Source: an uncultured Candidatus Saccharibacteria bacterium
Lineage (GTDB): Bacteria; Patescibacteriota; Saccharimonadia; Saccharimonadales; SZUA-47
Reading direction: 5' to 3'
Assembly: GCA_964536485.1 (NCBI GenBank)
Contig: CAZHXX010000005.1
Coordinates: 42 to 64,041 of the forward strand
DNA length: 64,000 nt
In this document: piece by piece, positions 11,314 to 59,080 of the stretch
Numbering within the stretch: the stretch's first letter is position 1
Layout: every line of letters begins with the position of its first letter
Program-made: the position numbers and the translations under genes
Notes under the pieces: model-generated
Seen by the model: only the letters and a program-made list of their open reading frames with translations
Told to the model about the DNA's origin: nothing
Databases searched by the model: none

Positions 11314-12468
11314 ATGGCATTTGTGAGCGCGCCTGTTTATCTTGATTACGCTGCGGCAACACCGCTTGACCCCGTTGTTCAACAGGCAATGACTGATTTT
11401 TATACCAAAAAATTCTACAATCCCTCGGCACTATATACTGGCGCTCGAGAAGTAAAGCAAGCCCTCGAGCAGGCAAGGGCACAAGTTGCGCGTAATATTG
11501 GCGCAAAGCCGAGTGAGATAACATTTACTGCCGGTGGCACAGAGTCTGCCAATCTTGCAATAAAGGGTATAGCGCAGGCTTATCCTAGTGGAGAGATACT
11601 AGTGAGTACTGTTGAGCACGATGCAGTGTTGCGCCCAGCGCAGGCGCACGGTGCGCAACTTGTTGCCGTAGATAAGTTCGGCAGAATTCTACTGAGTGAC
11701 TTGCAGAAGAAGCTTACAGACTCGACGGTGCTTATCTCGGTCATGTATGCAAATAATGAAGTAGGAACGGTCCAGCCTTTGGATGAAATTGCATCGCTTG
11801 TTGCGGAGATAAGAAAACTGCGCAGGCAACAGGGGAATAACATGCCACTATTTCTGCATACCGATGCTTGCCAGGCGCCGTATTATCTAGATGTAAATGT
11901 GGCGCGACTTGGTGTTGACCTTATGACGCTTAATGGGGGCAAGCTTTATGGTCCAAAGCAGTCGGGCATTTTGTATCACCGTACTGGTGTGTCTTTGCAG
12001 GCACAGATTCTTGGGGGCGGGCAAGAGCTCGGCTTGCGCAGTGGGACAGAAAGTGTGGCGACGTGCGTTGGGTTTGCTGTGGCGCTTGAGCAGGCGGTGA
12101 GTCAACGTGCGGAAGTGACAAAGAAAGTGAAGGAACAAACCGAGCGCTTCCGCCAGCTACTCGAGGCTCAGTTTCCGGACAGTGTGTACAACGGCCATCC
12201 TAAAATACGCTTGCCTAATACCTTGCACGTAACCTTTCCTGGCAAAGATAATGAGCGCATGTTGTTTTCACTGGATGACCAAGGAGTGTATGCAGCGGCT
12301 GGCTCGGCGTGTAGCGCCAGTAATGAAGAAGCTTCTCACGTGCTGAAAGCAATGGGATTGCGAGATGCTGATTCGCGGGCAAGTATCCGCTTTACGCTTG
12401 GGAAATATACCACCCAAGAAGATATTGAGCAGGCGGTAAAAGCACTTGTCGTTGCAGTGTACGCGTAA
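11314..12468 (+). CDS. cysteine desulfurase (class V aminotransferase, IscS/NifS-like)
   Basis: LDYAATTPLDP, FTAGGTESANLAIKG, HTDACQA (PLP-Lys region), C-terminal SACS active-site Cys region. Confidence 0.85.
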   Translation: MAFVSAPVYLDYAAATPLDPVVQQAMTDFYTKKFYNPSALYTGAREVKQALEQARAQVARNIGAKPSEITFTAGGTESANLAIKGIAQAYPSGEILVSTVEHDAVLRPAQAHGAQLVAVDKFGRILLSDLQKKLTDSTVLISVMYANNEVGTVQPLDEIASLVAEIRKLRRQQGNNMPLFLHTDACQAPYYLDVNVARLGVDLMTLNGGKLYGPKQSGILYHRTGVSLQAQILGGGQELGLRSGTESVATCVGFAVALEQAVSQRAEVTKKVKEQTERFRQLLEAQFPDSVYNGHPKIRLPNTLHVTFPGKDNERMLFSLDDQGVYAAAGSACSASNEEASHVLKAMGLRDADSRASIRFTLGKYTTQEDIEQAVKALVVAVYA

Positions 12469-12537
12469 AAGAGTTGTCACCGTATAAACAAAAGCGGTAT
12501 ACTACGCGGTAAAGGGGAATACCCCTTGTAACGCATA

Positions 12538-13383
12538 ATGGCTAGCAAAATTAAAGAAAAACTATCCTTAAAACGAGTTTTGTCCGCGGTGGGGCTAGTG
12601 ACGCTGTGTGCTTTAGCACAAATGGGTCCTGTTGACGCTCAGACTATCACTCAGGGCTATGCTTCAGATGGGGCTATCCAGCGCGCTACAATCGTGTCAC
12701 TGAGTCTTGATAATGCCAAAAAAGTCGAACCCACAACACTGGATAACGACGAGCGTATGCATGGTGTTGTGGTGAGCGCAAATGACGCGCCGTTTACTCT
12801 GTCTACAGAAGATGAAAAAACATTTGTCGCAACAAAGGGTCGTTTCGAGGCCTTCGTGAGCAATGAGGGTGGCACAGTGCAAGCGGGTGATTTTGTGACA
12901 ATTTCTCGCGTAGGTGGCATTGGGAAGAAAGCTGGCGATAAAGATCAATATATTGTTGGTAAAGCTGTTTCTGGCTTTGACGGAGAAACAGGAGTGCTAA
13001 GTACGACGGATGTTGACGATAATGGTATAACCAAGAAAGTTGCAATCGGAAGAGTTCAAGTTGACATTGGAGTTTCAGGCAACCCATTGCTCAAGCCAAC
13101 CCGGGCAAATTTGCCGGGCTTTTTAGAGAGAGCTGCTGAAACAATCGCCGGAAAGTCACCCGTCAATCCGCTTCGAATTTATATTAGTATGATCATCTTA
13201 TTTACCGCGGCTACGGTGTCGGGAATATTGCTCTATTCTGGCGTGCGAAGTAGCCTTATCTCTATCGGGCGTAACCCTCTATCTAAGAAGTCGATTACCC
13301 GAAGTTTGCTCCAGGTCATAATGACAAGCATAATCATTTTGTTACTCGGCATTTTTGGGGTATATTTATTGTTGAGAATATAA
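12538..13383 (+). CDS. signal-peptide protein with C-terminal ATP-synthase c-subunit-like helical hairpin (carboxylate missing)
   Basis: N-terminal signal peptide, ~180-aa hydrophilic domain, then two TM helices separated by loop GRNPLSKKS resembling c-subunit ARQPE loop; sits in the atpE position of the operon. Internal Met at ~13189 would give a 64-aa c-like ORF. Confidence 0.45.
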   Translation: MASKIKEKLSLKRVLSAVGLVTLCALAQMGPVDAQTITQGYASDGAIQRATIVSLSLDNAKKVEPTTLDNDERMHGVVVSANDAPFTLSTEDEKTFVATKGRFEAFVSNEGGTVQAGDFVTISRVGGIGKKAGDKDQYIVGKAVSGFDGETGVLSTTDVDDNGITKKVAIGRVQVDIGVSGNPLLKPTRANLPGFLERAAETIAGKSPVNPLRIYISMIILFTAATVSGILLYSGVRSSLISIGRNPLSKKSITRSLLQVIMTSIIILLLGIFGVYLLLRI

Positions 13384-13428
13384 GCATAAGTAGTAAGAAT
13401 AGACAGCGGTGGGAGCGCATAGACTAAG

Positions 13429-14058
13429 GTGAGCATTGGAATACTAGTCGTAGTACTATTTGTTATCATCATGCTTTCTGGCGTGGCCTTGTGGCTTATT
13501 TTTAAAAAACCAACAGATAAAGCACCAAAAAACAAGAAGAAAAACGCGCTTGAAGATTTAAGCGACAAAGCCGTTGCTGATGTAGAGCATATTTTTAACG
13601 ATGAATTTCGAGAAGAACTCCGCAACCGAGGCCGGCTTCACTTTGAAAAGATTATTGGTGAAAATGCCATGTTCTTGCAACAAGATTTACGCTTGACGAC
13701 AAGCCAGCTTAACGAATTCATGAAAAATGAAATTAGTAAGGTGCTAAAAGAGGAATTCTCCAAATACGAAGAATCTATTAATGACGCAAAACAGCTTGCT
13801 ATTGAGTCAATCCAAAAAACTCAAACAACCATTGAGCAACAACGTGAATTGCTGACACAACAGCTCAATGAACAGCTTGCGACTGAAAAGAGTCGTTCTC
13901 TTAGCCGGTTTGAGTCTCACATGGCAGACATCGTCAACCATTATGTGCTTGAAGCAGTGGGAGAACAGATTGATTTGAGCGAACAGCTTGAGTTTATTTT
14001 GTCACAGATGGATCGAAACAAAGAAGCGATTATTAAGGATATTCGCGATGGTGCTTGA
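13429..14058 (+). CDS. atpF: F-type ATP synthase subunit b-like
   Basis: GTG start, N-terminal TM helix then long charged coiled-coil region; operon position. Confidence 0.5.
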   Translation: MSIGILVVVLFVIIMLSGVALWLIFKKPTDKAPKNKKKNALEDLSDKAVADVEHIFNDEFREELRNRGRLHFEKIIGENAMFLQQDLRLTTSQLNEFMKNEISKVLKEEFSKYEESINDAKQLAIESIQKTQTTIEQQRELLTQQLNEQLATEKSRSLSRFESHMADIVNHYVLEAVGEQIDLSEQLEFILSQMDRNKEAIIKDIRDGA

Positions 14059-14737
14059 TGAGCAACATACGATTACACTTCCTGTCAGTATTGTAAGTCC
14101 CACTGATATTGCTCGTCTTACCCGTGAAATAGAGGCGATCGATAATTTTTTCCGTGAGCAACAAATTAGAAACGCGGGGGCACCTAATACGCCACCACGT
14201 TTAAGTAAACTGATGGACCAGCTTGCTTCTGATAATCAGAAGAATTTGTTAGTTGAAGAAGATCGTAAGCAACTAGTATTGTTGCTTGAAAAGCTTCATG
14301 CTACCGCCCCTGTAATGCACATTAGTTTTAGCGTTGACCCGCCGGGTGCATATGTGCAGAAGATTGTTGAATGGTTGCGCAACAACGTTCATAGCTATGT
14401 ACTCGTAACGGTTGGTTTGCAACCAAACATTGGTGCAGGGTGTATTGTCCGTACAACCAATAAGCTATTCGATTTTAGCTTGCGAGAGTTTTTCTACCAG
14501 AAGAGAGACTTTTTCATAGAAAAAATGCATAGCGTGCTTGTTGATATACCACAAACAGAGACGGTCGCGTCACCTGTGCAAACGCAAGCCACAGCTCCAC
14601 TGAACGAAGCTGCTCCTGAATCGAGTACGCCAATTGTCGTCGCAACGTCCCCGACTCCTGCTCAAGTCGTGCAGACGGCGCCAGCACCAGTTCCTATTAC
14701 AGTAAAAATGGCGCCTACAGAGGTTGCTCATGAGTAG
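14048..14737 (+). CDS. atpH: F-type ATP synthase subunit delta-like with Pro/Ala/Thr-rich C-terminal extension
   Basis: C-terminal core [27 protein letters not shown] resembles delta/OSCP IGG..VRVGD..ID.S motif; position between b and alpha. Confidence 0.5.
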
Positions 14738-16322
14738 TTCAACTGGCAATCAACACTTCGACAAACTTATAGACGCGGGAAAGCCTGTCGGTGAAGTTAT
14801 TGGGGTAGAAAAATTCTTGATTAAAGTCAAAGGCCTGCAACCTTGCCGAATCCATGCACTCGTCATGTTTGAGGATGGGTCAAAGGGCTTTATTCATCAA
14901 GTTTTAAGTGATTATGTGATGATTCTTCATCTAGGTGACGTACAGCTTCGGCTTGGCATGATTGCCGTGATTCAGCACGAAGAATTGGTTGCAAAAGTAG
15001 GGCGAGACTTCATAGGTCGTGTCATTACCGTTACAGGCGAACCGCTTGACGGAAAAGGTCCTATTGCTGCGGACGCTGTATGGCCGGTGTTTAACATCGC
15101 TCCACCTATATTTGCTCGTAAGCTCCTTGATCGACAGCTTGAGACGGGTGTTGGGGCGCTTGATGCGCTGTTCCCGGTGGTGCGTGGCCAGCGTATGGCG
15201 ATGCTTGGAGATAATAAGTCGGGAAAGAGTACGCTTGCAACGCAGATGGTGATCAATCAGAAGAATACTGACCAAGTTGTGGTGTACTGTATGATTGCAA
15301 AACGTCGTTCCGATGTAGACACCTTACTGGCTCGCCTTCATGAGAGTGGAAGCCTCGAGAAGGCAATTGTGGTGGTGAGCACCATGTTTGAGTCACTTAT
15401 TATGAGCTATATTGCCCCGTATGTCGCATGCGCAATGGCTGAGTATCTCTGGCAAGAGAAAGCCCAAGATACCATTATTATTTATGACGACCTTACCTCA
15501 CATGCACATGCCTACCGAGAAGTAGCCCTTCTTTCTGGGGTGAGCCCAGGTCGTGATAGCTATCCTGGTGATATGTTCTTTGCACACTCTAGTTTGCTGG
15601 AGCGTGCCGGGCGCCTTGATAGTAATAGTGCACACCTCACAAGCATCCCAATCGTAAACGCTGCGGGAGGTGACATTACTGCTTATTTGCCGACAAACAT
15701 CATGTCTATTACTGATGGACAGTGGATCTTAGATATGGACATCTTCCGAAATGGTATTCGTCCGGCAGTGAATATGGGCCTTAGTGTGACGCGTGTAGGT
15801 GGTGTTGGGCACAACAAGAGGCAAAAAGATCTCGCCGCTCAAACCCTTAAGATGCTCGCAGATTATCGACAAAGCGAAGAATTTTCACACTTTGGTTCTG
15901 AACTTGCGCTTGAGGCAAAGAAAGCACTCGATACTGGTAAGCGCGTATTTGAACTCCTTACCCAAAGTCCGACAGAAGTGTTCTCTTTGCAGGCTCAGCA
16001 ACTTATGCTTGACCTCACGCTAAATTTGCCAGACGGTGCAACGCTAGACATCGGTAAGCTTAAGCTAAACGCAAACGAGATTGCAAATAGTATGCAAAAT
16101 GATTCTGATGAAGAATATGAGAAAGCAAAAACAGCGTTGAAGAAGCTTGTCTTGATTGAGCTTATGGGAGCTCCTTCCTCAGACAAGAAGACGGAACAAG
16201 AGGCGTCTAGCGAACCATCTGCAAAAGATGCTGAGGCAAAGAAGGACGAAAAACATAAAGATGAACAGAATAGTGAGGCCCCAGCCCCAGCAGAGCCTAA
16301 AAAAGAAGAGGTAAAGAAGTAA
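14730..16322 (+). CDS. atpA: F-type ATP synthase alpha subunit (divergent P-loop GDNKSGKST, Lys/Glu-rich C-terminal tail)
   Basis: Alpha/beta family architecture; P-loop region, [38 protein letters not shown] conserved alpha blocks; TTG at 14724 in track, ATG at 14730. Confidence 0.8.
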
Positions 16323-16323
16323 T

Positions 16324-18494
<2,171 letters not shown>

Positions 18495-18495
18495 C

Positions 18496-18813
18496 ATGGA
18501 CACAGCAACGACAAAAGATGATGCAACTGATCAGCATGCTCCAGTAAAAATTGATCCAAAGGCTGATCCTACCATGATGCAAATCAAGGTATATTCACCG
18601 TATCAAGTCTACTTTGATGAGTTAGCAACGAGCATCAGCGCCATAAACGATACAGGTCCTTTCGACATTTTAAAAGGACACCACCGCTTTTTGACTCTTC
18701 TTGTGCCCTGCGAACTTGTCATTGCGGCAGCAAAAGGCGAAGAAAAAATAAAGATTTCCCACGGGATTATGTATGTCAAGGAAGATCGTGTGACGGTCTT
18801 TCTTGATGTGTAG
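18496..18813 (+). CDS. atpC: F-type ATP synthase epsilon subunit
   Basis: MMQIKVYSPYQVYFD...FDILKGHHRFLTLLVPCELV matches epsilon beta-sandwich pattern; track ORF starts upstream overlapping atpD. Confidence 0.65.
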   Translation: MDTATTKDDATDQHAPVKIDPKADPTMMQIKVYSPYQVYFDELATSISAINDTGPFDILKGHHRFLTLLVPCELVIAAAKGEEKIKISHGIMYVKEDRVTVFLDV

Positions 18814-18843: not shown

Positions 18844-19818
18844 TTAGTCGATAACGATAAAGTCAAAACTTATAGAGCCTGAGGGTAGTGCTGTTGAGGT
18901 TGAGACGGTAAAGCCTGTGGTTGTCCTGTTTGACACAAACGAATAAGGTGCTGATGCATTCACAGGAGTTATGACAACATGAGGGTTGCTATTGAACGGC
19001 TTGTTGAAGCTAATGGTAGCAAGCGCACCACCACTCGCACTAGACCCAACGTTAATGGTTACTGTCCCAGCAGTATCGGTACCACTTATGGTCACCGTAC
19101 CACCCGAGCCAACAGCTCCACCTGAACTCACGCTTGGCGTGCCACCCCCAGCATCGATATGCTTGCCAAACTGCAAATCACCAGTGAGAGAAAGAGCATC
19201 AACTGTCAATGATGGAGCTGAGATTGGCCCTGCAAAAGAGCCTTGACCATTGACGGTAAGGTTCTTTTGAACCGTAAGAATGCCTTGGACGCTCGCGTCA
19301 CCCGCGATAGAGAGGGTATTTACCTGCACTTCATCAAAGGCACTTTTGCCAGAGACGGTGATACCAGGAAGGTTGAGGTCTCCACCAACTTTGATTGGTC
19401 CAGCCACATCAAGCCCGTCACGGATAAGTACTTTGCCGGCAAATACAGCGTTTGACTCAACGTTCAAAAGTTGCTTCGGGTCACCCACGGTTGCCTCATT
19501 GCTGGTGAGGCTGTCAATTGCATCCTGGGTGAGTTCTTGTGTCTTCACCGATTCTTCTTTTGCGGCCTGTTTGTTACTCGATTGCACGACCACGAAGATA
19601 ATAATGAGACTGATGATTATAAGGAGAATAAAAGCAAGCAAATAGATGTTGATGCGGTTTGCAATTTTAGTTGCAATGGAGCCTGGTGAGCGCTTCTTTT
19701 TTTTCTCTTCTGTTGATGAGCCTGCGTCAGGGGTTTCAGTAACAGTAGTGTCTTGCTCCTCCAACGTCTCCAGGGAATCAGCTGATTTTGATGCTTCGTC
19801 TTCTTTGTTCGGTTCCAT
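18844..19818 (-). CDS. membrane-anchored beta-solenoid (bactofilin-like repeat) protein
   Basis: Acidic N-terminus, one TM helix, then repetitive V/G/T-rich segments (VAGPIKVGGDLNLPGITVSG...TVTISGTDTAGTVTINVGSS) typical of beta-helical repeats. Confidence 0.4.
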   Translation of the reverse strand: MEPNKEDEASKSADSLETLEEQDTTVTETPDAGSSTEEKKKKRSPGSIATKIANRINIYLLAFILLIIISLIIIFVVVQSSNKQAAKEESVKTQELTQDAIDSLTSNEATVGDPKQLLNVESNAVFAGKVLIRDGLDVAGPIKVGGDLNLPGITVSGKSAFDEVQVNTLSIAGDASVQGILTVQKNLTVNGQGSFAGPISAPSLTVDALSLTGDLQFGKHIDAGGGTPSVSSGGAVGSGGTVTISGTDTAGTVTINVGSSASGGALATISFNKPFNSNPHVVITPVNASAPYSFVSNRTTTGFTVSTSTALPSGSISFDFIVID

Positions 19819-19959
19819 ATAACATGCTTAAGGTTTATTATTACCACCAGTGTATATGATTTGCCTTTTAATGTCACGAGAAAACGTAACCGTATTGCGA
19901 AGCTTCACATTCTGTGCAATAATCTTGTTAAAAGCAAAAGGATATTGGTAAAAACTCGC

Positions 19960-20643
19960 ATGGCACCTTATCAGCATCACGTCAATACCTACCGTAGAAT
20001 GCATCGTGCATCCAGAGTAAAGAAACTGTCAAAGTTAAGCCTATTTCTCGCGTCACTTGTTGCTATCGGCATTTCCGGAGATATATTGTGGCAAAAATTA
20101 CGAGCAGAAGATTCGGTGGTAAGCGTTGAGTCAACGTCTTCTGTTCAATCAGCTACGATTAACCTATTCCGTACTCCTTATTTTCAGTTTCAAGCAGATC
20201 GAAGCTGGGTCGAGGTTCCGGAAGTTAGCACTCCTACAAAGTTTATCTACAGAAGTTCCAATGGTCCGCTTTTAGAGCATCAGCTTACCGTCTATGTTAA
20301 TGAGCGTCCACCCGCTAAGCTAGCGGCTACTCATGTTTATACTGTAGCACTTGATGGTCGCAAGTTCAGCGAAGTACATCCAGCTGACAAGCACTGTAAT
20401 TCAGAGACAAAAGGCTTAAACAACGAGCCAAAAGTCATTACCTACAACGAAGTGACATTTAACTGTGATCTAGGCAGTTCTACTTTTTCTAGCTTCGTAG
20501 GGTTGCAGGGTGGCACGAATGAGATGGCAATTACTCGTCCAAATGGGGAGCAGGCAGTGTATTCTATCGTCTACGATGACCTGACTTTTTCTCCTAGCCC
20601 AAATCAAATAAATTCAATCATGAAGACGTTCCAGATTCATTAA
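19960..20643 (+). CDS. signal-anchored secreted hypothetical protein
   Basis: ATG at 19960 with AAAGGA SD; basic N-terminus and TM helix; track ORF begins at upstream alternative start. Confidence 0.4.
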   Translation: MAPYQHHVNTYRRMHRASRVKKLSKLSLFLASLVAIGISGDILWQKLRAEDSVVSVESTSSVQSATINLFRTPYFQFQADRSWVEVPEVSTPTKFIYRSSNGPLLEHQLTVYVNERPPAKLAATHVYTVALDGRKFSEVHPADKHCNSETKGLNNEPKVITYNEVTFNCDLGSSTFSSFVGLQGGTNEMAITRPNGEQAVYSIVYDDLTFSPSPNQINSIMKTFQIH

Positions 20644-20690
20644 AAGACAGCCAAAGCTTCTAGAACAACCTTTTTGCTTATGCTATAGTT

Positions 20691-21470
20691 ATGGCTATAG
20701 GTATGAGTAAAAAAGTTTTCTTCGTTATCGCAATAGCCACATTGTTTGTGGGCTCTTATAAAGATGTTGTCTATGCAGTTTCATCGTCGACAAACTATAG
20801 CGTGCAGGAATCAGCTTTTGGTGCGGGGAGCGGAAACGGTTCATCAGCAAGCTATGGTGCACAGGGTTCTGCTGGTCTTAATGGAGTAGGAAATGCCTCG
20901 AGCACCAATTATGACACGGTTGCAGGACTTATCACACCAGATGTTCCCTTCCTTGAATTTGTAGTTTCCGGTGCCACGGTTGATCTTGGTGTGCTCGATC
21001 CTAACACGCCTTCAAGCGGGGCTGCCCAGGCTGGTGCCTGTAACTGCTCGTTCTATGTTCGCTCATATGTTTCATCGGCATATGTGGTAACAACTATGTC
21101 GGCTCCGCCAACGAGTGAGTCTGGCAGGGTGCTAGCGGCAAAGGCAATCCAAGGCGTCCCGTCTTCGAGCCAAAGTGTCGAAGAGTTTGGTATAAACGTT
21201 GTGGCAAATTCCTCGCCTGCAATTGGTGCCGATCCAGTCAATCAGCCAGACAATAGCTTTGCCGATGGCGTTGCTGAAACTGGCTATAACGTCGCGAACC
21301 AATTCAAATACGCTATAGGTGATGTGATTGCACGTTCTGCAGGCACTGCTAATACAAAAGCCTGGGGCCAAACAGACTACACCATCAGCTATATCACCAA
21401 GAGCAGTACTTTGACGCCAGCCGGACTCTACAAGATGGATCATGTACTTGTAGCTACTTCTATTTACTAA
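20691..21470 (+). CDS. secreted protein, small paralog of the surface-protein family (WxL-like C-terminus)
   Basis: Signal peptide; shares TVDLGV block, paired Cys and GDVIARS / aromatic C-terminal motif with downstream paralogs. Confidence 0.45.
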   Translation: MAIGMSKKVFFVIAIATLFVGSYKDVVYAVSSSTNYSVQESAFGAGSGNGSSASYGAQGSAGLNGVGNASSTNYDTVAGLITPDVPFLEFVVSGATVDLGVLDPNTPSSGAAQAGACNCSFYVRSYVSSAYVVTTMSAPPTSESGRVLAAKAIQGVPSSSQSVEEFGINVVANSSPAIGADPVNQPDNSFADGVAETGYNVANQFKYAIGDVIARSAGTANTKAWGQTDYTISYITKSSTLTPAGLYKMDHVLVATSIY

Positions 21471-21559
21471 TAATTTAGTAACATTGATTGTTTCATGAAA
21501 GTATCATTTATATTAAGTAAATTTGTGGATAACTAGATTATTTTTGTGTAAAAATATGT

Positions 21560-21587
21560 TTGCTTCTGAAGACGTTTATGCTATAAA
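21560..21587 (+). promoter_or_regulatory. candidate sigma70-type promoter for surface-protein locus
   Basis: TTGCTT - 16 nt - TATAAA upstream of strong SD AAAAGGAG and ATG 21639. Confidence 0.3.
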
Positions 21588-21638
21588 TAAGAGGTAAATT
21601 AAAAATTAAACAAAAAAACACAAAAGGAGTACGTATAA

Positions 21639-22934
21639 ATGAATACGTCAATTTCAAAGACGGTAAGAGTTCGTTCTGCATTTGTTGCAGGCCTATTCTT
21701 ATTGGTCGTCGTTCTACCGCTTCTCGCAGTTGGTAGAGCATCTGCTTACGCTCAGCTGACAAACCGTCAGATAGCTATCGCTACCTCTGAAGTAAGTGCA
21801 GCTGACACGGTATACACCGTAAGCTTTAAGCCAGCAACAACAGGGAACATCAGAGGAATCGTCATTGATTTCTGTACTAGTCCTCTCGTTGGTACGGTAT
21901 GTACTGCGCCAACAGGTTTTGATACCCAAGAAGCAGGTCTTGGTGTCTACAACGAGTCTGGTTCTGGATTCGGTACAGGCTGGACACTCGATGGTACTGA
22001 AAGTACCTCAAACAAAGTGGTCATTAAAGATGCAAGCGGTGGAAGCGTGACTGCTGGTACAACAGTAAGCTTCGAGCTTGGTGACGGAACATCAGGTGAT
22101 GGGTTGACAAACCCTTCAACAAACGGTTCTTTCTACGCTCGAATCATGACCTATGCAGTAGCTACTGATGCTGATGCATATGATTCTGGTAGTACTGGTT
22201 CTAACAACCCACCATCAAGCACCGTTGACGCTGGCGGTATCGCTCTTAGCACTGCTAACCAGCTTACCGTGAACGCTCGTGTGCAGGAAGTCTTGCAGTT
22301 CTGTGTTGGGACAACTGACGCAGCTTCAGCAGATGACTGTACTGACATTTCTGGAACGACGGTTGATCTTGGAGTAATTCAAAGCGGTGCCCCAAGTATT
22401 TCACCTGTTTCAACCACAGTTGGTGGTAACAACAAGAGTGGTCTTGCAATGGTACGCACAAACGCAGTAAACGGCGTTGTGATCGACTACTTTGCTGAAC
22501 CAGTTACTGGTGACGGTGGATCAACTCACATGGCTTCACTACGTGTTAGTGGTGCAACTTGCACCGGCGACGGTACAATTGCTACTGGTTCTAAAGTTGA
22601 CCAGTGTTTCAACAGCTCAGGAACGACACAAGCTGTCTTTGCTGGTGCTGACGAAGGCTTCGGTATGACTGCTTCATCAGTTGACACCTCAAACGGAACA
22701 ACAGCCAATGTTGTAAGAGACGCAGAGTACGATGGTAACGGTACAAACGGTGCAGGTAACGGTTGGGCATGGGCTCAAGGTACACCTGACCGCATCGCAA
22801 GCTCTACTGGCTCTTCAGTAAAAGTTGTTGACGACGAAATGCTTAACTTGACCTTCGCAGCACAAGCTGCCGTAACGACTCCAACCGGTCAATACGGTGT
22901 CAAGAGCACATATATTGCAACAGCAAGCTTCTAG
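21639..22934 (+). CDS. secreted Cys-pair surface protein, paralog A (431 aa)
   Basis: Strong SD, signal peptide ending ASAYAQ, conserved C-x-C-TAP motif, Gly/Thr/Ser-rich, C-terminal ...TYIATASF. Confidence 0.6.
   Translation: MNTSISKTVRVRSAFVAGLFLLVVVLPLLAVGRASAYAQLTNRQIAIATSEVSAADTVYTVSFKPATTGNIRGIVIDFCTSPLVGTVCTAPTGFDTQEAGLGVYNESGSGFGTGWTLDGTESTSNKVVIKDASGGSVTAGTTVSFELGDGTSGDGLTNPSTNGSFYARIMTYAVATDADAYDSGSTGSNNPPSSTVDAGGIALSTANQLTVNARVQEVLQFCVGTTDAASADDCTDISGTTVDLGVIQSGAPSISPVSTTVGGNNKSGLAMVRTNAVNGVVIDYFAEPVTGDGGSTHMASLRVSGATCTGDGTIATGSKVDQCFNSSGTTQAVFAGADEGFGMTASSVDTSNGTTANVVRDAEYDGNGTNGAGNGWAWAQGTPDRIASSTGSSVKVVDDEMLNLTFAAQAAVTTPTGQYGVKSTYIATASF
21736..22927 (+). repeat. tandem duplication copy 1 (1192 bp, near-identical to 23155-24346)
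   Basis: Direct comparison: offset 1419 bp, identical except a few substitutions near 21758-21767; antisense ORF echoes in the track are duplicated too. Confidence 0.85.
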
Positions 22935-22956
22935 TAACAACTAGATATCCACAAAT

Positions 22957-22998
22957 AAAGCACAAGCAGTTTAAGAAACACTTGTGCTTTATTTAATT
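22957..22998 (+). terminator. rho-independent terminator between duplicated genes
   Basis: AAAGCACAAG - 14-nt loop - CTTGTGCTTT followed by ATTTAATT. Confidence 0.5.
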
Positions 22999-23057
22999 GT
23001 TTGTTAATATATTTTTGCAAACCCTAAAACAAAAACATTTAAATAAAAGGAGTGCAT

Positions 23058-24353
23058 ATGATACATGCATCGACTCTTCCTAAAAGGGTCAATAGCTTGC
23101 TTTTGGCAGGCGTAATTATGGCTTCGGTAATAGTACCGTTGCTAGTAACCGCGCGAGCATCTGCTTACGCTCAGCTTTCACAGCGTCAGATAGCTATCGC
23201 TACCTCTGAAGTAAGTGCAGCTGACACGGTATACACCGTAAGCTTTAAGCCAGCAACAACAGGGAACATCAGAGGAATCGTCATTGATTTCTGTACTAGT
23301 CCTCTCGTTGGTACGGTATGTACTGCGCCAACAGGTTTTGATACCCAAGAAGCAGGTCTTGGTGTCTACAACGAGTCTGGTTCTGGATTCGGTACAGGCT
23401 GGACACTCGATGGTACTGAAAGTACCTCAAACAAAGTGGTCATTAAAGATGCAAGCGGTGGAAGCGTGACTGCTGGTACAACAGTAAGCTTCGAGCTTGG
23501 TGACGGAACATCAGGTGATGGGTTGACAAACCCTTCAACAAACGGTTCTTTCTACGCTCGAATCATGACCTATGCAGTAGCTACTGATGCTGATGCATAT
23601 GATTCTGGTAGTACTGGTTCTAACAACCCACCATCAAGCACCGTTGACGCTGGCGGTATCGCTCTTAGCACTGCTAACCAGCTTACCGTGAACGCTCGTG
23701 TGCAGGAAGTCTTGCAGTTCTGTGTTGGGACAACTGACGCAGCTTCAGCAGATGACTGTACTGACATTTCTGGAACGACGGTTGATCTTGGAGTAATTCA
23801 AAGCGGTGCCCCAAGTATTTCACCTGTTTCAACCACAGTTGGTGGTAACAACAAGAGTGGTCTTGCAATGGTACGCACAAACGCAGTAAACGGCGTTGTG
23901 ATCGACTACTTTGCTGAACCAGTTACTGGTGACGGTGGATCAACTCACATGGCTTCACTACGTGTTAGTGGTGCAACTTGCACCGGCGACGGTACAATTG
24001 CTACTGGTTCTAAAGTTGACCAGTGTTTCAACAGCTCAGGAACGACACAAGCTGTCTTTGCTGGTGCTGACGAAGGCTTCGGTATGACTGCTTCATCAGT
24101 TGACACCTCAAACGGAACAACAGCCAATGTTGTAAGAGACGCAGAGTACGATGGTAACGGTACAAACGGTGCAGGTAACGGTTGGGCATGGGCTCAAGGT
24201 ACACCTGACCGCATCGCAAGCTCTACTGGCTCTTCAGTAAAAGTTGTTGACGACGAAATGCTTAACTTGACCTTCGCAGCACAAGCTGCCGTAACGACTC
24301 CAACCGGTCAATACGGTGTCAAGAGCACATATATTGCAACAGCAAGTTACTAA
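23058..24353 (+). CDS. secreted Cys-pair surface protein, paralog B (near-identical mature region)
   Basis: SD AAAAGGAG + ATG 23058 (track lists GTG 23052); different signal peptide, mature region identical to paralog A, last residue Y instead of F. Confidence 0.6.
   Translation: MIHASTLPKRVNSLLLAGVIMASVIVPLLVTARASAYAQLSQRQIAIATSEVSAADTVYTVSFKPATTGNIRGIVIDFCTSPLVGTVCTAPTGFDTQEAGLGVYNESGSGFGTGWTLDGTESTSNKVVIKDASGGSVTAGTTVSFELGDGTSGDGLTNPSTNGSFYARIMTYAVATDADAYDSGSTGSNNPPSSTVDAGGIALSTANQLTVNARVQEVLQFCVGTTDAASADDCTDISGTTVDLGVIQSGAPSISPVSTTVGGNNKSGLAMVRTNAVNGVVIDYFAEPVTGDGGSTHMASLRVSGATCTGDGTIATGSKVDQCFNSSGTTQAVFAGADEGFGMTASSVDTSNGTTANVVRDAEYDGNGTNGAGNGWAWAQGTPDRIASSTGSSVKVVDDEMLNLTFAAQAAVTTPTGQYGVKSTYIATASY
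23155..24346 (+). repeat. tandem duplication copy 2
   Basis: See copy 1. Confidence 0.85.
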
Positions 24354-24402
24354 ACTAACTAATCTGTTTTAGGATTTTGCAAAAGACTAATAGAATAGGG
24401 TT

Positions 24403-25467
24403 ATGAGACGAAAAAAACAAATCAGTTTTAGATTTCATAATGTCGCACGAGCGTTGTTGTTAGCAACGCTCGTGTCCCTATATAGTCTCTTTATCCCATT
24501 TAAAGCTCAGGCAACAGACCTCGCGAGCCGTAGTATCAGCTTAAAAAGTTCAGTCGCCGGAGAAACTACCCAGCACTTATTCACCTTTACGAACCCTACT
24601 GCATCCACGCTTGGGTCTATAAAATTTGAGTATTGTCAGAATAGCCCGTTGTTTTTTGAATCTTGTACGGCACCAGGCGGGCTAAACCTCTCTTCAGCAA
24701 CGCTCGCCGTGCAGACGGGTAATGCGGGGTTTGTAAAAGACCCTCTTTCGACGGCTACGTCACTTATTATAAGTAGAACGCCTGGAGGTTCTCTCAGCAC
24801 GGTCAATACTTACAGATTTGATTCAGTAATTAACCCTACAACAATCAACACCACCTATTTTGTTCGTATAAGCTTATACGCAAGCAATAATGCCACCGGT
24901 GTAAGCTTCGATCAAGGTGCGGTCGCCTTTAGTACAAGTGGTGGGTTTAGTATCGGTGCTTACGTCCCGCCGTTTATGATATTTTGCGTTGGCGTTACCG
25001 TAGCACAAGATTGTAGCAGTACGGTAGGAAGCTTGGTCAATTTTGGTGAACTTGAGTCTAATAAGACATCTTTTACCACTACACAGTTTGCCGGTGCCAC
25101 GAATGATCCAACGGGTATGCAGGTTTTTCTCAACGGCCAGACAATGACCTCCGGAAATAACACTATACCGGCGCTAGCAGTAAACTCTTCGAGCGCCACT
25201 GGGACCTCTCAATTTGGGGTGAACTTGCGCTCAAACAATGCTCCATCGGTTGGCTCGAGTCGAACTGGCCCCGGAACAATGTTTGCAACAACTAATTATG
25301 ACGTACAGAACCAGTACCGCTTCGTGGATGGAGACGTCATCGCGCGCTCCACTATTTCAACAGACTTTACGCGCATGACCGTTAGCTACATTGTTAATGT
25401 GAGCGAAGACCAAAAACCTGGTATTTACGCAACGACGCTTCTCTATACAGCCCTTGCAAGTTTTTAA
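24403..25467 (+). CDS. secreted surface protein, divergent paralog (354 aa)
   Basis: Signal peptide, FEYCQNSPLFFESCTAPGG (same C-x-C-TAP motif), FCVGVT..DCS block, GDVIARS and C-terminal ...TLLYTALASF. Confidence 0.5.
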   Translation: MRRKKQISFRFHNVARALLLATLVSLYSLFIPFKAQATDLASRSISLKSSVAGETTQHLFTFTNPTASTLGSIKFEYCQNSPLFFESCTAPGGLNLSSATLAVQTGNAGFVKDPLSTATSLIISRTPGGSLSTVNTYRFDSVINPTTINTTYFVRISLYASNNATGVSFDQGAVAFSTSGGFSIGAYVPPFMIFCVGVTVAQDCSSTVGSLVNFGELESNKTSFTTTQFAGATNDPTGMQVFLNGQTMTSGNNTIPALAVNSSSATGTSQFGVNLRSNNAPSVGSSRTGPGTMFATTNYDVQNQYRFVDGDVIARSTISTDFTRMTVSYIVNVSEDQKPGIYATTLLYTALASF

Positions 25468-25532
25468 TTTTATACTTGCTATTACTGCTACACTTTATTA
25501 AGCTAGTGTTAAAAGCAAATGAAGGAGAAGTA

Positions 25533-26504
25533 ATGATACAAAAACTTAAAGTTATAGTGCTTTCTGTGCTATTTACCATTGTGAGTATGCCGGCGTTGTC
25601 AGCGTCTGCACAAGAAAATGTGGTGGGGAGCGGGCTAAGTATTTCGCCAACAAGAACCGATCTTGTTGTCAATGCAGGAACAACAGCAGATCTAACTATT
25701 TCGCTAAAAAATGTCACTGGAGGACTTATCACCGCTAAAGCGTTCATGAACGACTTTGAACCAGATGGTGTTTCTGGCGAACCTAGACTGATTACCGACA
25801 GTGGGGTAAAGTCTGCATCATCAATCAAGGATTTTCTTGTAGGTCTTGAGGACGTATCTCTAGGTGTTGACGAGACGAAAGAGCTTAAACTAAAAGTTGA
25901 AGTACCAGCAGAAGCTTCACCTGGCGCATATTACGGCGTTATCCGCTACCAGGCTGTTCCAGTGAATGAAAATGGTGAAGAATCTGGCGGTGGACAGGTT
26001 GCGCTTACCGCAAGTGTGGGAACGATTGTTCTTGTAGAAGTGCCTGGTAACATCACCCAGAAGATTGAAATCAAAAGCCTAGCTGCCTATATTGGTGACA
26101 AAAAAGGGAAGTTCTTTACAAAGCGTCCTGAACAAGTGGGAATAAATGTCGAGAACCTTGGTAACGGCTTTGCACGACCTTTCGGTAAAGTAACTGTTAC
26201 TGACATGTTTAACAAACAAGTATTTTCATACGAAATGAACAATACTAACCCACGTGGCGTTGTGATGCCTAGCTCAACTCGTCTTTTCAAAGACAGTGTG
26301 AACGGGATTAGCAAGCCTGGACGATATAAGCTGGCTGCGGACATATCATATGGAAATGGCGGAGAAGTATACAGTATTTCGTCTACATTCTGGTATGTTC
26401 CAACGTGGCTCGTGATTACACTCCTTGTATTGTTGCTTGCTCTCGTAGGAGTCGCCTTATACCTAACACGCAAATACAAGACTCGCTCAATGAGACGCCG
26501 ATAA
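25533..26504 (+). CDS. cell-surface protein with C-terminal TM anchor, CscA-like (DUF916/DUF3324-like architecture)
   Basis: SD GAAGGAG + ATG 25533; signal peptide, SISPTRTDLVVNAGTTADLTISLKN beta-rich domain, PGAYYGVIRYQ block, single C-terminal TM followed by RKYKTRSMRRR. Confidence 0.5.
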   Translation: MIQKLKVIVLSVLFTIVSMPALSASAQENVVGSGLSISPTRTDLVVNAGTTADLTISLKNVTGGLITAKAFMNDFEPDGVSGEPRLITDSGVKSASSIKDFLVGLEDVSLGVDETKELKLKVEVPAEASPGAYYGVIRYQAVPVNENGEESGGGQVALTASVGTIVLVEVPGNITQKIEIKSLAAYIGDKKGKFFTKRPEQVGINVENLGNGFARPFGKVTVTDMFNKQVFSYEMNNTNPRGVVMPSSTRLFKDSVNGISKPGRYKLAADISYGNGGEVYSISSTFWYVPTWLVITLLVLLLALVGVALYLTRKYKTRSMRRR

Positions 26505-26529
26505 TTAGCACACACATACAAAGTAAAAA

Positions 26530-26557
26530 GCTCCCGCTATTCTCGCGGGAGCTTTTT
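26530..26557 (+). terminator. rho-independent terminator
   Basis: GCTCCCGC-tattct-GCGGGAGC followed by TTTTT. Confidence 0.7.
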
Positions 26558-26641
26558 CTATTGAGGCCAAAATCTTGTTGCGCTTACGCTTCCTATAGCT
26601 TACAATTACAGGTGTAACATTACGTAATATAAAGATTAAAA

Positions 26642-27589
26642 ATGAAAAAGTATCTACCACTCACGTGGCAAGACATGAAACGCCTACTTCTTGTCGTTTC
26701 GTTTAGTATTGCTGCTTTCTTTCTTGTGCTTGGTGCCCAGCCGGCATACGCACAGAGCACGGACCCAGAACAATCTGGGTCTGTTGGTTTGACTGGTACG
26801 ATAAGCGCACCGCCTCCAACGCAGGGTGCAAGCATTACCTTTCCAACAGGCGGACAATCCTTTACCGAAATGCCTGTTCCTGTGCGTGGGCTTTGTCCAA
26901 AGGGCCTGTTAGTGAAGCTTTTTAAGAACAATGTCTTTGCCGGCTCAGTACAGTGCGATAGTGGCACGTTTGAGCTAAGTATTGACCTATTTACAGGGAC
27001 AAATGATCTGATTGCTCGAGTCTATGACGAGCTTGACCAGCCTGGACCAGATTCTGCAACGGTGACAGTACAATTTGTAGACCCACGTAGAGGTGCCGGT
27101 ACTCGTGTAAGTGCTACCAGCAACTTTGCAAAGCGTGGGGCGAACCCGGGTCAAACGCTCACCTGGCCACTCATCATTAGTGGTGGGTCAGGACCATATG
27201 CAATTAGCGTTGATTGGGGAGACGGCAAAACAGCAGATCTTTTGAGTCAGCCATTTCCAGGTACACTAGATCTCTCGCATATTTATGATGCTGCCGGTGT
27301 GTATAACATTGTCATAAAAGTGAGTGATTCTAACGGTGGTACCGCCTTTTTGCAAGTAGTTGGTATTGCCAACGGCCCGCTTACCCAGACAAATGCGGAT
27401 GGTACGCCAATCGGGACAAAAGATGATGGTGTTGCCTTTATCGCCTCAGGAAGAACCACTATTGTTTGGTGGCCAGCGACTATTACAGTACCTTTTATTG
27501 TTTCTACCTTTTGGCTTGGTAAACGTTATATGCTGCGTGTTATGAAGAAGCGTATAGAGCGTGGTGAGCACCCGTTCTCAGATATTTAA
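26642..27589 (+). CDS. PKD-domain surface protein with C-terminal TM anchor
   Basis: Signal peptide; PKD signature ISVDWGDGKTAD...HIYDAAGVYNIVIKVSDSNGG; C-terminal TM and basic tail. Confidence 0.55.
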   Translation: MKKYLPLTWQDMKRLLLVVSFSIAAFFLVLGAQPAYAQSTDPEQSGSVGLTGTISAPPPTQGASITFPTGGQSFTEMPVPVRGLCPKGLLVKLFKNNVFAGSVQCDSGTFELSIDLFTGTNDLIARVYDELDQPGPDSATVTVQFVDPRRGAGTRVSATSNFAKRGANPGQTLTWPLIISGGSGPYAISVDWGDGKTADLLSQPFPGTLDLSHIYDAAGVYNIVIKVSDSNGGTAFLQVVGIANGPLTQTNADGTPIGTKDDGVAFIASGRTTIVWWPATITVPFIVSTFWLGKRYMLRVMKKRIERGEHPFSDI

Positions 27590-57290: not shown

Positions 57291-58487
57291 ATGAGTCAGT
57301 TTAACAAACAGTTTTTTGCTAGGAATCGGGAGCGTTTAATGCAGACGCTCCCAGATTCACTTATTATTTTGAGCGCGAATGCATGCCTGCAACAGTCGGC
57401 AGATCTTGCGTTTCCATTTCGGCAAGATAGTAGTTTTTGGTACCTCAGTGGAATCAACGAGCCAGATATTTTGTTAGTCATTGACACAAAAAAAGGTACA
57501 TCGACTCTCCTTATAGCCGAGCAAAATGACTACCAGATTGAATGGGACGGAGCGGTTGAAACAGAGGGCTATCAAAAAATAAGTGGCATAACTCTCTTTT
57601 CTTCTCAGAATGAACTAAAGCACTTAATTGAGGATGCAAAAAAGCGGGGACTTACTATTTGCAGTGTCAGGCCGGCTGAAGAGCGGGTTGAACCATATGG
57701 CTTTTATGCAAATCCAGCCCGAAGGTTATTGTATGCACAGCTTGAGACATGTGGTGTGAAGGAGCCTAAAGACATTCGACTGCAACTTGCACAACTAAGA
57801 CAAATTAAGCAAGAGCCAGAACTTCGTGCGCTTCAGCGTGCGATAGATATCACAGGTGACGTACTTTCTGACGTAAAAGCAAAGCTTTCTCGCTTTAAGA
57901 CCGAAAAAGATGTAGAACGAGCTATTACGGCAGGGTTTTATTCTGCTGGTGGTGATGGCCATGCGTATGAACCAATTGTTGCATCTGGGAAGAATGCAAG
58001 TACTATTCATTACAATAAGAATAATGAGGCTCTCGCAAAAGGTCACCTATTGCTGCTTGATGTTGGAGCACAGTCAGAGGGATACGCCGCCGATATTAGC
58101 CGAGCATGGGCGGTCGGGCACCCGACAAAACGGCAAAAAGAAGTGTATGACGCTGTATGTGAGTTGCAGGAGCAAGCATTCTCGCTATTGAAGCCGGGAG
58201 TGTATCTTAAGGAATACCAAGAAGAAATGGAAAAAAGAGCTGCGAAAACAATAGAAAAGCTAGGGAAATCCCCACGACCTTTCCCGCACGGGTTTTCTCA
58301 TTTTCTTGGGCTTGATGTTCATGATGCAGGAGACTACAGCTCTCCATTGCAACCAGGAACAGTACTTACGGTTGAACCTGGCTTTTACTTTTCGGATGAA
58401 TCGATAGGGGTGCGCGTCGAGGACGATATTCTCATTACCAAAAGTGGGTACATAAACCTGTCAGAACGAATACCAAAACTGTTATAA
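57291..58487 (+). CDS. M24-family Xaa-Pro aminopeptidase / prolidase
   Basis: Creatinase/prolidase N-domain plus M24 metal ligand blocks (LLLDVGAQSEGYAADISR, HGFSHFLGLDVHD, VEPGFY, VRVEDD). Confidence 0.8.
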   Translation: MSQFNKQFFARNRERLMQTLPDSLIILSANACLQQSADLAFPFRQDSSFWYLSGINEPDILLVIDTKKGTSTLLIAEQNDYQIEWDGAVETEGYQKISGITLFSSQNELKHLIEDAKKRGLTICSVRPAEERVEPYGFYANPARRLLYAQLETCGVKEPKDIRLQLAQLRQIKQEPELRALQRAIDITGDVLSDVKAKLSRFKTEKDVERAITAGFYSAGGDGHAYEPIVASGKNASTIHYNKNNEALAKGHLLLLDVGAQSEGYAADISRAWAVGHPTKRQKEVYDAVCELQEQAFSLLKPGVYLKEYQEEMEKRAAKTIEKLGKSPRPFPHGFSHFLGLDVHDAGDYSSPLQPGTVLTVEPGFYFSDESIGVRVEDDILITKSGYINLSERIPKLL

Positions 58488-58861
58488 TGAAAGTAATGAA
58501 GAAGAACAAAAAATCTCGATTTATCGTGCGATGGTTTGTGTGTAGTTTTGGCTTGTGGATCGCTGCCGAACTGCTTGGTGCAAGTAGCATTAGCTACGGT
58601 GGAAAATTGAGTGCTATTATTTTTTCGGGACTTTTTTTGGCTATCATAAACACCATCATTCGGCCACTAGTAGTCTTTTTAACCTTGCCAGCAGTGTTAT
58701 TGAGTCTTGGAATCTTCATGGTTGTCATCAATGCTCTGATGGTTTTGCTCGCGGCACGGCTGTATGGCCCTCTTGAAGTTGCAGGATTTGGCGTTGCCGT
58801 CATTGCCGGTATTATCATCGGTCTGGTAAACTGGTTAGTAAGTGCTTTATTAGAGGAGTAA
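58487..58861 (+). CDS. DUF360 / phage-holin-4_2 family membrane protein
   Basis: Four-TM pattern with AIINTIIRPLVVFLTLP...LGIFMVVINALMVLLAARL typical of YvlD/DUF360; start overlaps the pepP stop by 1 nt (TAATG). Confidence 0.6.
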   Translation: MKVMKKNKKSRFIVRWFVCSFGLWIAAELLGASSISYGGKLSAIIFSGLFLAIINTIIRPLVVFLTLPAVLLSLGIFMVVINALMVLLAARLYGPLEVAGFGVAVIAGIIIGLVNWLVSALLEE

Positions 58862-58864
58862 GAA

Positions 58865-59080
58865 ATGTCAATTTGGAACTATATTATGGTGGGCTCAGCG
58901 ATAGTAATGATTATATTAATTTTGATTCAGGTCAGAGGCGCTAGTTTGGGTGCCGGACTTGGCGGTGGCGGGGAAGTTAACACTGTCCGTCGTGGTTCAG
59001 ATAAAAGTATTTTTAGTCTCACTATCATCGCTGCGCTAGGATTTGCCTTGTCAATTATTCTAGAAATAATACTTGCGTAA
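58865..59080 (+). CDS. secG: preprotein translocase subunit SecG
   Basis: 71 aa, TM - QVRGASLGAGLGGGGE loop - TM, matching SecG Gly-rich loop. Confidence 0.65.
   Translation: MSIWNYIMVGSAIVMIILILIQVRGASLGAGLGGGGEVNTVRRGSDKSIFSLTIIAALGFALSIILEIILA

Follow-up and report, generated by a model that had tools for sequence, protein, structure and literature searches.

A probable second, F-type-derived ATPase in Saccharibacteria, headed by a c-subunit-like hairpin with a phage-cement-like outer domain

A 64-kb stretch of DNA from an uncultured Candidatus Saccharibacteria bacterium (contig CAZHXX010000005.1, hereafter the window) contains, at positions 12538-18813, an operon that encodes F1- and stalk-like ATPase subunits and opens with an unusual 281-aa membrane protein. 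On balance, we read this operon as encoding a second, F-type-derived ATPase that does not translocate ions. Such an enzyme would probably burn ATP to do work at the cell surface and not to move ions.

Results

A single gene in the place of atpB and atpE

The first gene of the operon, its parts and its candidate promoter are listed below.

12538..13383, + strand: c-like subunit with ectodomain, first gene of the operon (281 aa; no Pfam or NCBIfam family at threshold)
12538..12639, + strand: putative signal peptide, residues 1-34, with the presumed cleavage site between V-D-A and Q (hydropathy, AlphaFold2 (AF2) helix 11-27, conserved A34-Q35)
12640..13107, + strand: extracytoplasmic beta domain, residues 35-190 (Foldseek against PDB, BFVD, Pfam matches among 57 family members)
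13168..13377, + strand: c-subunit-like transmembrane (TM) helical hairpin, residues 211-280 (AF2, Foldseek, c-profile matches with controls)
13267..13278, + strand: invariant cytoplasmic loop G244-R245-N246-P247 (57 homologues; aligns to 'aRqP' of the c profile)
12474..12503, + strand: candidate sigma-70-like promoter TTGTCA-18-TATACT, 10/12, the top match of the region, in the 70-bp upstream gap

The 281-aa open reading frame (ORF) is preceded by a gene for a class-V aminotransferase (cysteine desulfurase-type) that ends at 12468, and the next gene downstream starts at 13429. The gaps of 70 bp and 45 bp therefore leave no room for a further gene. This bears out the sequence-only reading, an earlier inspection of the same DNA without database searches, according to which only one gene stands where atpB and atpE would be expected. 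Promoter-like sites are no more numerous in the region than in shuffled sequence, so that the site listed above is a candidate only.

Hydropathy analysis of the protein revealed three hydrophobic segments (residues 9-27, 214-232 and 260-278). We modelled it with AF2 as a single chain, using an alignment of 57 diverse homologues (30-56% identical to the window protein), which also underlie the conservation data below. The model (mean predicted local distance difference test score, pLDDT, 94; predicted TM-score, pTM, 0.76) shows residues 11-27 as an N-terminal helix and residues 38-181 as a beta domain. A further short helix (194-204) precedes the hairpin, whose two long helices, 211-245 and 247-280, run antiparallel and are joined by a turn at G244-R245-N246-P247. 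At the N-terminus, a Lys/Arg-rich stretch is followed by a hydrophobic core and then by the conserved A34-Q35, a pattern that makes a signal peptide plausible. Such a peptide would place the beta domain and the C-terminus outside and the loop GRNPLSKKSITR in the cytoplasm; the R/K/K/R residues of this loop agree with the positive-inside rule. The hairpin is thus predicted to be oriented N-out, loop-in, C-out, as is the F-type c subunit.

Much of the anatomy proposed by the sequence-only reading stands. Its signal peptide and outward-facing N-terminal domain are supported by hydropathy, the AF2 model and the conserved A34-Q35, and the loop GRNPLSKKS is present as described. A two-helix hairpin exists as well, with a length of about 70 aa by the model (211-280) instead of the 64 C-terminal residues first suggested. 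The idea of an internal Met start fared worse: M217 (13186) is not conserved, its column being occupied by M, L, I, A or T, and a free c-like product therefore lacks comparative support.

Similarity of the hairpin to subunit c

Foldseek searches of the PDB returned F-type c subunits as the best matches of the hairpin, with root mean square deviations (rmsd) of 1.0-1.4 Å. The c subunit of Chloroflexus (9itt_I) superimposes over 67 residues with a TM-score of 0.91 and an rmsd of 1.0 Å, that of Bacillus PS3 (6n2d) with a TM-score of 0.88, and mammalian, chloroplast, yeast and mycobacterial c subunits follow.

For comparison at the sequence level, a hidden Markov model (HMM) was built from 11 canonical c subunits and run against 6337 ORFs from 84 related loci, which represent about 80 Saccharimonadia species with 10 kb of flank on each side. 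Only six sequences were matched at E<1 (best E 0.076), all of them members of the 281-aa protein family. The six alignments are in register, 'vaRqPe' of the profile standing opposite 'iGRNPL', that is RQP opposite RNP. In one homologue the alignment spans 73 of 79 positions and sets the conserved Glu opposite the Ser of a T-S pair. The median score of the family ranks within the top 0.4% of the background ORFs in the loci, and the family scores above every other membrane ORF found there. Against shuffled sequences in which the compositions of TM1, loop and TM2 were each kept, real hairpins reached 6.2 bits vs -0.3 +/- 2.1 (median empirical p 0.01), with p<=0.05 in 48 of the 57 sequences.

Conservation within the 281-aa family is highest in the hairpin, not in the ectodomain, and the sole invariant stretch of the hairpin among the 57 homologues is G-R-N-P. 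The gene sits in the atpE slot in every locus examined. Fold, loop, topology, gene position and a profile score that is weak, albeit above controls, all support the earlier description of the hairpin as c-subunit-like. A lack of detectable likeness to c, which together with a canonical atpB-atpE pair elsewhere would have overturned the earlier reading, is not what we found: the HMM matches, their controls and Foldseek show such a likeness.

Absence of the ion-binding carboxylate and of subunit a

Among the 57 homologues, no Asp or Glu is conserved in the second helix of the hairpin. Where subunit c has its Glu, the window protein has S264 if the c-profile alignment of the homologue is followed, or I265 if one counts 18 residues past the loop Pro, in agreement with the earlier observation that Ile/Ser replaces the essential Glu/Asp. 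Across the family this column holds small residues (S, A or G, also V). Q259, T263 and S264 are polar and conserved among close relatives, but are not kept across the whole family; one distant member has a Glu at the position of Q259, which is close to where the helix ends on the cytoplasmic side.

Searches of the six-frame translation of the window, and of the 10 kb to either side of the operon in the 84 related loci, brought up neither an a nor a c subunit, within the limited sensitivity that they have toward divergent a subunits. The window likewise contains no ORF with five to six TM helices of a-subunit size. The sequence-only reading had found no a-subunit gene in the operon, and the same now applies to the window and to the flanks of all the loci. 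In the established mechanism of F-ATPases, neither the ion-binding carboxylate nor the a subunit is useful without the other. Their joint loss is therefore coherent, and it argues against ion translocation.

A phage-cement-like ectodomain

The outer domain of the 281-aa protein is homologous to capsid cement proteins of phages. Foldseek matched it in the PDB to capsid decoration or cement proteins of Sf11 (9ocb_H, E 1.7e-3), HFTV1 (8qsy) and Adjutor (8saj), and in BFVD to many phage structural proteins (35 matches at E<=1e-3, best 1.6e-9). Pfam models of such proteins recognise part of the family: PF23982 (XM1_gp53_minor_capsid) 19 of the 57 members, with a best E of 8.5e-6, PF22758 (Phage_cement; E217 gp24/Pam3 gp6) seven, and PF09956 (Phage_cement_2) five. 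What residues ~35-190 have in common with phage cement and decoration proteins is the fold and a weak sequence similarity. Unlike these proteins, the domain forms one polypeptide here with a signal peptide and a membrane hairpin, and its setting is a cellular operon conserved in synteny, with no phage context. Cement-type domains act as protein-protein 'staples'.

F1 and stalk genes

The 281-aa gene is followed by six genes that overlap or abut one another.

13429..14058, + strand: b-like peripheral-stalk candidate, 209 aa, N-terminal TM helix and long helix (position, architecture)
14048..14737, + strand: divergent delta/OSCP, 229 aa (TIGR01145 E 0.0018, profile, AF2 and Foldseek)
14730..16322, + strand: F1 alpha-like, 530 aa (Pfam ATP-synt_ab 4e-67)
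16324..17187, + strand: F1 gamma-like, 287 aa (Pfam ATP-synt 2e-32)
17187..18494, + strand: F1 beta-like, catalytic, 435 aa (Pfam 7e-62; Walker A GGAGVGKT)
18496..18813, + strand: epsilon-like, 105 aa (Pfam ATP-synt_DE_N reaching the C-terminus)

Subunit assignments were tested against Pfam and the equivalog cut-offs of NCBIfam. All F1 and stalk subunits fall below the latter: alpha scores 393 bits (atpA, cut-off 484), beta 404 (TIGR01039, cut-off 463), gamma 96 (TIGR01146, cut-off 194), epsilon 45 (TIGR01216, cut-off 67) and delta 18.5 (cut-off 57.5), and the b-like protein has no NCBIfam match to a b subunit. Yet they resemble canonical F1 more than they do the N-ATPase, MSC_0618/0619 or gliding-ATPase models. 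The Walker A motif of beta is intact, and epsilon consists of the N-terminal beta-sandwich alone, without the C-terminal helical domain.

By profile and by fold, the delta subunit is genuine. Searched against the PDB, its family profile finds delta/OSCP in 13 of the 15 top matches, and the top 27 Foldseek matches of its AF2 model, in which the N-terminal domain is reduced, are all delta/OSCP. Several homologues are labelled delta subunit by the Joint Genome Institute (JGI).

The peripheral stalk thus appears to be kept as delta plus the b-like protein, the latter assigned from position, architecture and weak similarity to ATP-synt_B (PF00430; seven of 39 family members, best E 2.5e-4). Neither the b-like profile searched against the PDB nor its hhalign comparison with E. 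coli b was significant. No other accessory subunit is as well conserved as the b-like protein, whose mean column identity is 64%. Directly past its poorly conserved TM helix it carries the near-invariant stretch FNDEFREELRNRGRLHFEKIIGENAMFLQQDLRLTTSQLN, unlike canonical b subunits, which hints at a specific membrane-proximal contact.

Several peculiarities of these genes deserve mention. Delta and alpha end in low-confidence or disordered tails, the former of ~65 aa and Pro/Thr/Ala-rich (14540-14737), the latter of ~50 aa and Lys/Glu-rich (16170-16322). Across the loci, delta varies between ~156 and 255 aa (two longer ORF calls excluded) and alpha between 475 and 578 aa. On contig JAUIBF010000001.1 (loci L001 and L017), beta is called with 504 aa, and extra ORFs of 94 aa and 53 aa appear between alpha and gamma and between gamma and beta, respectively; these odd calls may be start-site or overlap artefacts.

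Distribution and genomic context

Relatives of the 281-aa protein form a large family. Clustering at 90% identity yielded 950 clusters at E<=1e-3, none of them with a Pfam domain, and clustering at 50% identity yielded 1195, of which 702 lie below 1e-10. When one genome per GTDB species was scanned, relatives were found in 166 genomes; the best 80, which were examined, all belong to Saccharimonadia save one contig labelled Limnocylindria. This contig (DATHJH010000036.1), deposited as 'Candidatus Limnocylindria' (Chloroflexota), has the full Saccharibacteria-type synteny and has probably been misassigned in binning.

In all 84 loci the gene order is the same: methionyl-tRNA synthetase (MetRS), TatD, a small hypothetical protein, aminotransferase, c-like, b-like, delta, alpha, gamma, beta and epsilon. 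The order of the ATPase genes is that of a canonical operon minus atpB, and in each of the 83 testable loci the c-like gene precedes the b-like gene, at a median distance of 30 bp. None of the 84 loci has a second alpha or beta gene within 10 kb.

In the cultured Southlakia epibionticum, a canonical operon of the form atpZ/I-B-E-F-H-A-G-D-C is found at SEML1_0349-0358 (PMC10633639, supplement). The counterpart of our locus in this genome runs from MetRS through TatD and two hypothetical genes to cysteine desulfurase (0664-0660) and then directly to YdcF, MnmA, the alanyl-tRNA synthetase AlaRS and PilM, with no ATPase there. The window has MnmA (28357), AlaRS (29884) and a PilM-like gene (32331) in the Southlakia order, and the ~15 kb between the aminotransferase and MnmA are taken up by the ATPase operon and a surface-protein gene cluster. 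Since the Southlakia site is devoid of an ATPase and the canonical operon lies elsewhere, the present operon is not a positional orthologue of the canonical one.

Subunit counts from another Saccharibacterium, GCA_001790445, point in the same direction. In the available part of the published table, AtpA, AtpD, AtpG and AtpC are counted twice and AtpE, AtpB, AtpF and AtpH once, a pattern confined to this genome among the Candidate Phyla Radiation (CPR) genomes listed there; RAAC3_TM7_1 is entered with one of each subunit (PMC10656485, Supplementary Data 4). These counts would fit a canonical enzyme plus an operon like the one described here, given that its c-like, b-like and delta proteins escape COG detection. 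This genome is a different one from that of the window, and its second set may be of the present type. The atpB that the sequence-only reading suspected elsewhere thus probably exists, as Southlakia and these counts suggest, in a separate canonical enzyme and not as part of this one. Our literature search found no paper joining Saccharibacteria with 'F1-like', and reviews on Patescibacteria mention only 'an F-type ATP synthase'.

Neighbouring and other genes of the window

Directly after the operon comes a cluster of genes (19861-27589 on the + strand, plus 18844-19818 on the - strand) for signal-peptide or TM proteins without a Pfam family. The proteins of 19861-27589 measure 260, 259, 431, 433, 354, 342 and 315 aa. 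Of these, the 342-aa protein combines a C-terminal TM anchor with a faint match to WxL-interacting-protein/DUF916-like domains, and the 315-aa protein carries a PKD domain. The convergently transcribed 324-aa protein (18844-19818) has a TM helix, a weak bactofilin match and a faint H-lectin match; we read it as a beta-helix. The adjacent 431- and 433-aa proteins (21639-22934 and 23052-24353) are essentially identical past their first ~40 residues; the genes were either duplicated in tandem recently or are an artefact of the assembly. The cluster accompanies the operon wherever the flank reaches far enough, in up to 48 of the 84 loci. The Southlakia site lacks it, and so does locus L077, in which epsilon is followed immediately by MnmA. 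The cluster may work together with the ectodomain.

Far from the operon, at 58487-59080, a 124-aa ORF with three TM helices is followed by a 71-aa ORF with two (58865-59080) and the Gly-rich loop GASLGAGLGGGGE. The smaller ORF, the one other small two-TM ORF examined among those of at least 60 aa, was considered as a stray c subunit and rejected, as it has no RQP loop; from its Gly-rich loop and its sequence we read it as probably SecG.

Discussion

A model of the enzyme and the evidence against it

We propose that a canonical atpB-E-F-H-A-G-D-C operon gave rise to the present one, which lost atpB and retained the order of the other genes. In this process atpE would have been remodelled into a gene for a protein that joins a signal peptide and a phage-cement-like ectodomain to a c-type hairpin devoid of the ion-binding carboxylate. 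Copies of the hairpin might assemble into a c-ring-like oligomer whose cytoplasmic G-R-N-P loops would dock gamma and epsilon, with alpha3beta3 held by delta and the membrane-anchored b-like protein. ATP hydrolysis would then turn gamma, epsilon and the ring, epsilon lacking the inhibitory C-terminal domain, and the energy output would be motion of an extracellular crown of cement domains instead of an ion gradient. That both stalks are kept, together with strong conservation and the invariant, presumably F1-docking loop, argues for a working machine. Its most far-reaching version, a rotary ATPase that passes torque through the membrane so that the rotating crown acts on wall or surface proteins, is put forward only tentatively. 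The sequence-only reading had left a choice between an incomplete or non-translocating Fo, with the F1-like complex serving another role, and an atpB located elsewhere; a non-translocating complex with another role is now the best-supported reading, and the other alternative survives only in the part described above.

Several observations weigh against this model. At the sequence level, the case for homology with c is weak. In the hhalign comparison of the hairpin with c, just 19 loop columns were aligned (P 0.044, probability 1.2%); hmmsearch with the hairpin profile against PDB sequences retrieved no c chain and only a spurious chemokine match; and PF00137 (ATP-synt_C) gave no match at E<=10 with the hairpin alone or with any of the 57 members. 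The first helix lacks the GxGxGxG packing motif in the 57 homologues. In our judgement, F-type c subunits dominate Foldseek matches of hairpins, and the Foldseek result is therefore partly to be expected for any such hairpin; moreover, AF2 may have modelled the hairpin on c subunits. Finally, without a subunit a, the b-like protein is held in the membrane by only one poorly conserved TM helix, which makes resistance to torque there a difficulty for the model. We regard descent of the hairpin-bearing protein from atpE as likely, though short of proven. Lacking the defining carboxylate, the protein stands outside the c family as now defined.

Alternative explanations

The shortfall of the Pfam and profile-profile tests is also the main attraction of a simpler view, in which the hairpin is a generic two-TM anchor that has converged on c, and the 281-aa protein is a surface protein co-transcribed with an F1-like ATPase, itself tethered by the b-like protein, without belonging to it. 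Foldseek matches helical hairpins easily, and a surface-protein gene cluster does adjoin the operon. We nevertheless consider this view unlikely. The hairpin is the most conserved part of the protein and its cytoplasmic loop is invariant, a constraint to which a passive anchor would not be subject. The gene holds the exact atpE position in 83 of 83 loci, its hairpin scores above composition-preserving shuffles and above the other membrane ORFs of the loci, and in L077 the operon persists without the surface cluster. Little credence is given to a split canonical synthase, the sole F1Fo of the cell with atpB and atpE elsewhere, to which the 281-aa protein would contribute as an AtpI/AtpZ-like accessory or assembly factor, its gene lying upstream of atpF by chance. 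Split atp operons do occur in other bacteria, our view of the genome spans 64 kb, and the general divergence of CPR proteins could explain the sub-threshold NCBIfam scores. Against this, the hairpin matches c subunits, and PF09527 (AtpZ/AtpI) is not among its Pfam matches; the motif by which c docks to F1, G-R-N-P here, is invariant; and where a canonical operon is recognised in Saccharibacteria, atpI-B-E adjoin atpF and the 281-aa gene is lacking. The 2/2/2/2 versus 1/1/1/1 counts tabulated for GCA_001790445 would also fit two enzymes and not one that was split.

The polar residues Q259, T263 and S264 of close relatives, together with the Glu of one distant member at position 259, might be taken as a non-carboxylate ion site, some other protein replacing subunit a. 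Such an unconventional pump is very improbable. The residues are not conserved family-wide, position 264 shares nothing beyond small size, and Q259 is located toward the cytoplasmic side of the helix; there is no multi-TM partner nearby in the 84 loci; and all characterised rotary ATPases, to our knowledge, need a membrane carboxylate and an a-type Arg. The sub-cut-off scores and the loss of atpB, of the carboxylate and of the epsilon C-terminal domain could finally be seen as signs of a degenerating, functionless copy of an ATP synthase. This is hardly credible, being already contradicted by conservation: seven intact ORFs with invariant order and coupled-looking, overlapping or abutting starts in about 80 species, 64% mean column identity of the b-like protein, an intact Walker A motif in beta and a family of 1195 clusters.

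Comparison with known systems

The non-translocating, F-type-derived ATPase that we favour shares features with several known systems. With F-type c subunits (AtpE, PF00137), the 281-aa protein has in common the two-TM hairpin of N-out/loop-in/C-out topology, the R-(Q/N)-P loop, an rmsd of 1.0-1.4 Å and a gene directly upstream of the b-subunit gene. It differs in that helix 2 lacks Asp/Glu, helix 1 lacks GxGxGxG, no subunit a adjoins it and ~200 extra N-terminal residues (signal peptide and ectodomain) are present; Pfam and NCBIfam models fail to recognise it.

N-ATPases are likewise second F-type operons that coexist with the main enzyme. They keep a, b and an ion-binding c, add AtpQ and AtpR and have another gene order; the operon described here has no atpQ or atpR, no a and no c, and its scores against TIGR03324 and TIGR03305 (330 vs 750 and 367 vs 752 bits) do not admit it to this group. 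The gliding G1-ATPase of Mycoplasma mobile (Type 2) resembles the proposed enzyme as an F1-derived motor performing mechanical work instead of ion transport, but is built of cytoplasmic dimeric chains and has no c-like subunit; scores against its models NF045863 and NF045858 (329 vs 600 and 339 vs 850 bits) are again below cut-off.

The nearest functional analogue, as far as analogy goes, is the mycoplasma F1-like X0 ATPase (Type 3), encoded by MSC_0618-0624 and MMCAP2_0575-0581 and required for the antibody-cleaving MIB-MIP system (PMC3369863, PMC12994834). Its cluster has seven genes, among them one for a 12-TM protein and another for a small cytoplasmic protein, and none for delta or b (PMC12994834, PMC3369863). 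In MMCAP2_0577, two TM helices at the C-terminus are preceded by a signal peptide and ectodomains (PMC12994834), an arrangement shared with the 281-aa protein and its single ectodomain. Both enzymes lack a and c subunits and presumably spend ATP on work at the cell surface. In mycoplasmas, the extra alpha/beta/gamma/epsilon-like set stands beside a genuine F1Fo in a tiny, host-dependent bacterium, Types 2 and 3 coexisting with Type 1; coexistence with a canonical F1Fo would fit the tabulated counts of GCA_001790445 as well. The differences are no less clear. A b-like protein and delta are kept here, while the mycoplasma enzyme has no peripheral stalk; a 12-TM protein, a small cytoplasmic protein and MIB-MIP neighbours are missing here; and the ectodomain is small (~150 aa) and cement-like. 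Besides this different gene content, alpha and beta reach only 254 vs 520 and 352 vs 570 bits with the MSC_0619 and MSC_0618 models. As they are far below these cut-offs and nearer to canonical F1, their origin is independent, and since every accessory subunit differs as well as the alpha/beta lineage, the similarity to the mycoplasma enzyme is convergent.

These results have practical consequences. In metabolic reconstructions of Saccharibacteria, matches to alpha, beta, gamma and epsilon that stem from such operons could be miscounted as 'an F-type ATP synthase', and a family of 1195 clusters without a Pfam model now gains a functional hypothesis. Genetic tools for Saccharibacteria are available (PMC10633639), which makes this hypothesis testable.

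In evolutionary terms, the operon points to an independently derived F1-like equivalent in another ultra-small, host-dependent bacterial lineage, where it occurs in at least 166 species. Its anatomy is intermediate, with both stalks and a c-type membrane subunit that has lost its carboxylate and gained an outward domain, and would make visible a route from a rotary ion pump to a mechanical device. Should the rotating crown prove true, it would represent a type of surface machine undescribed in bacteria, evolved independently of the F1-like enzymes of mycoplasmas.

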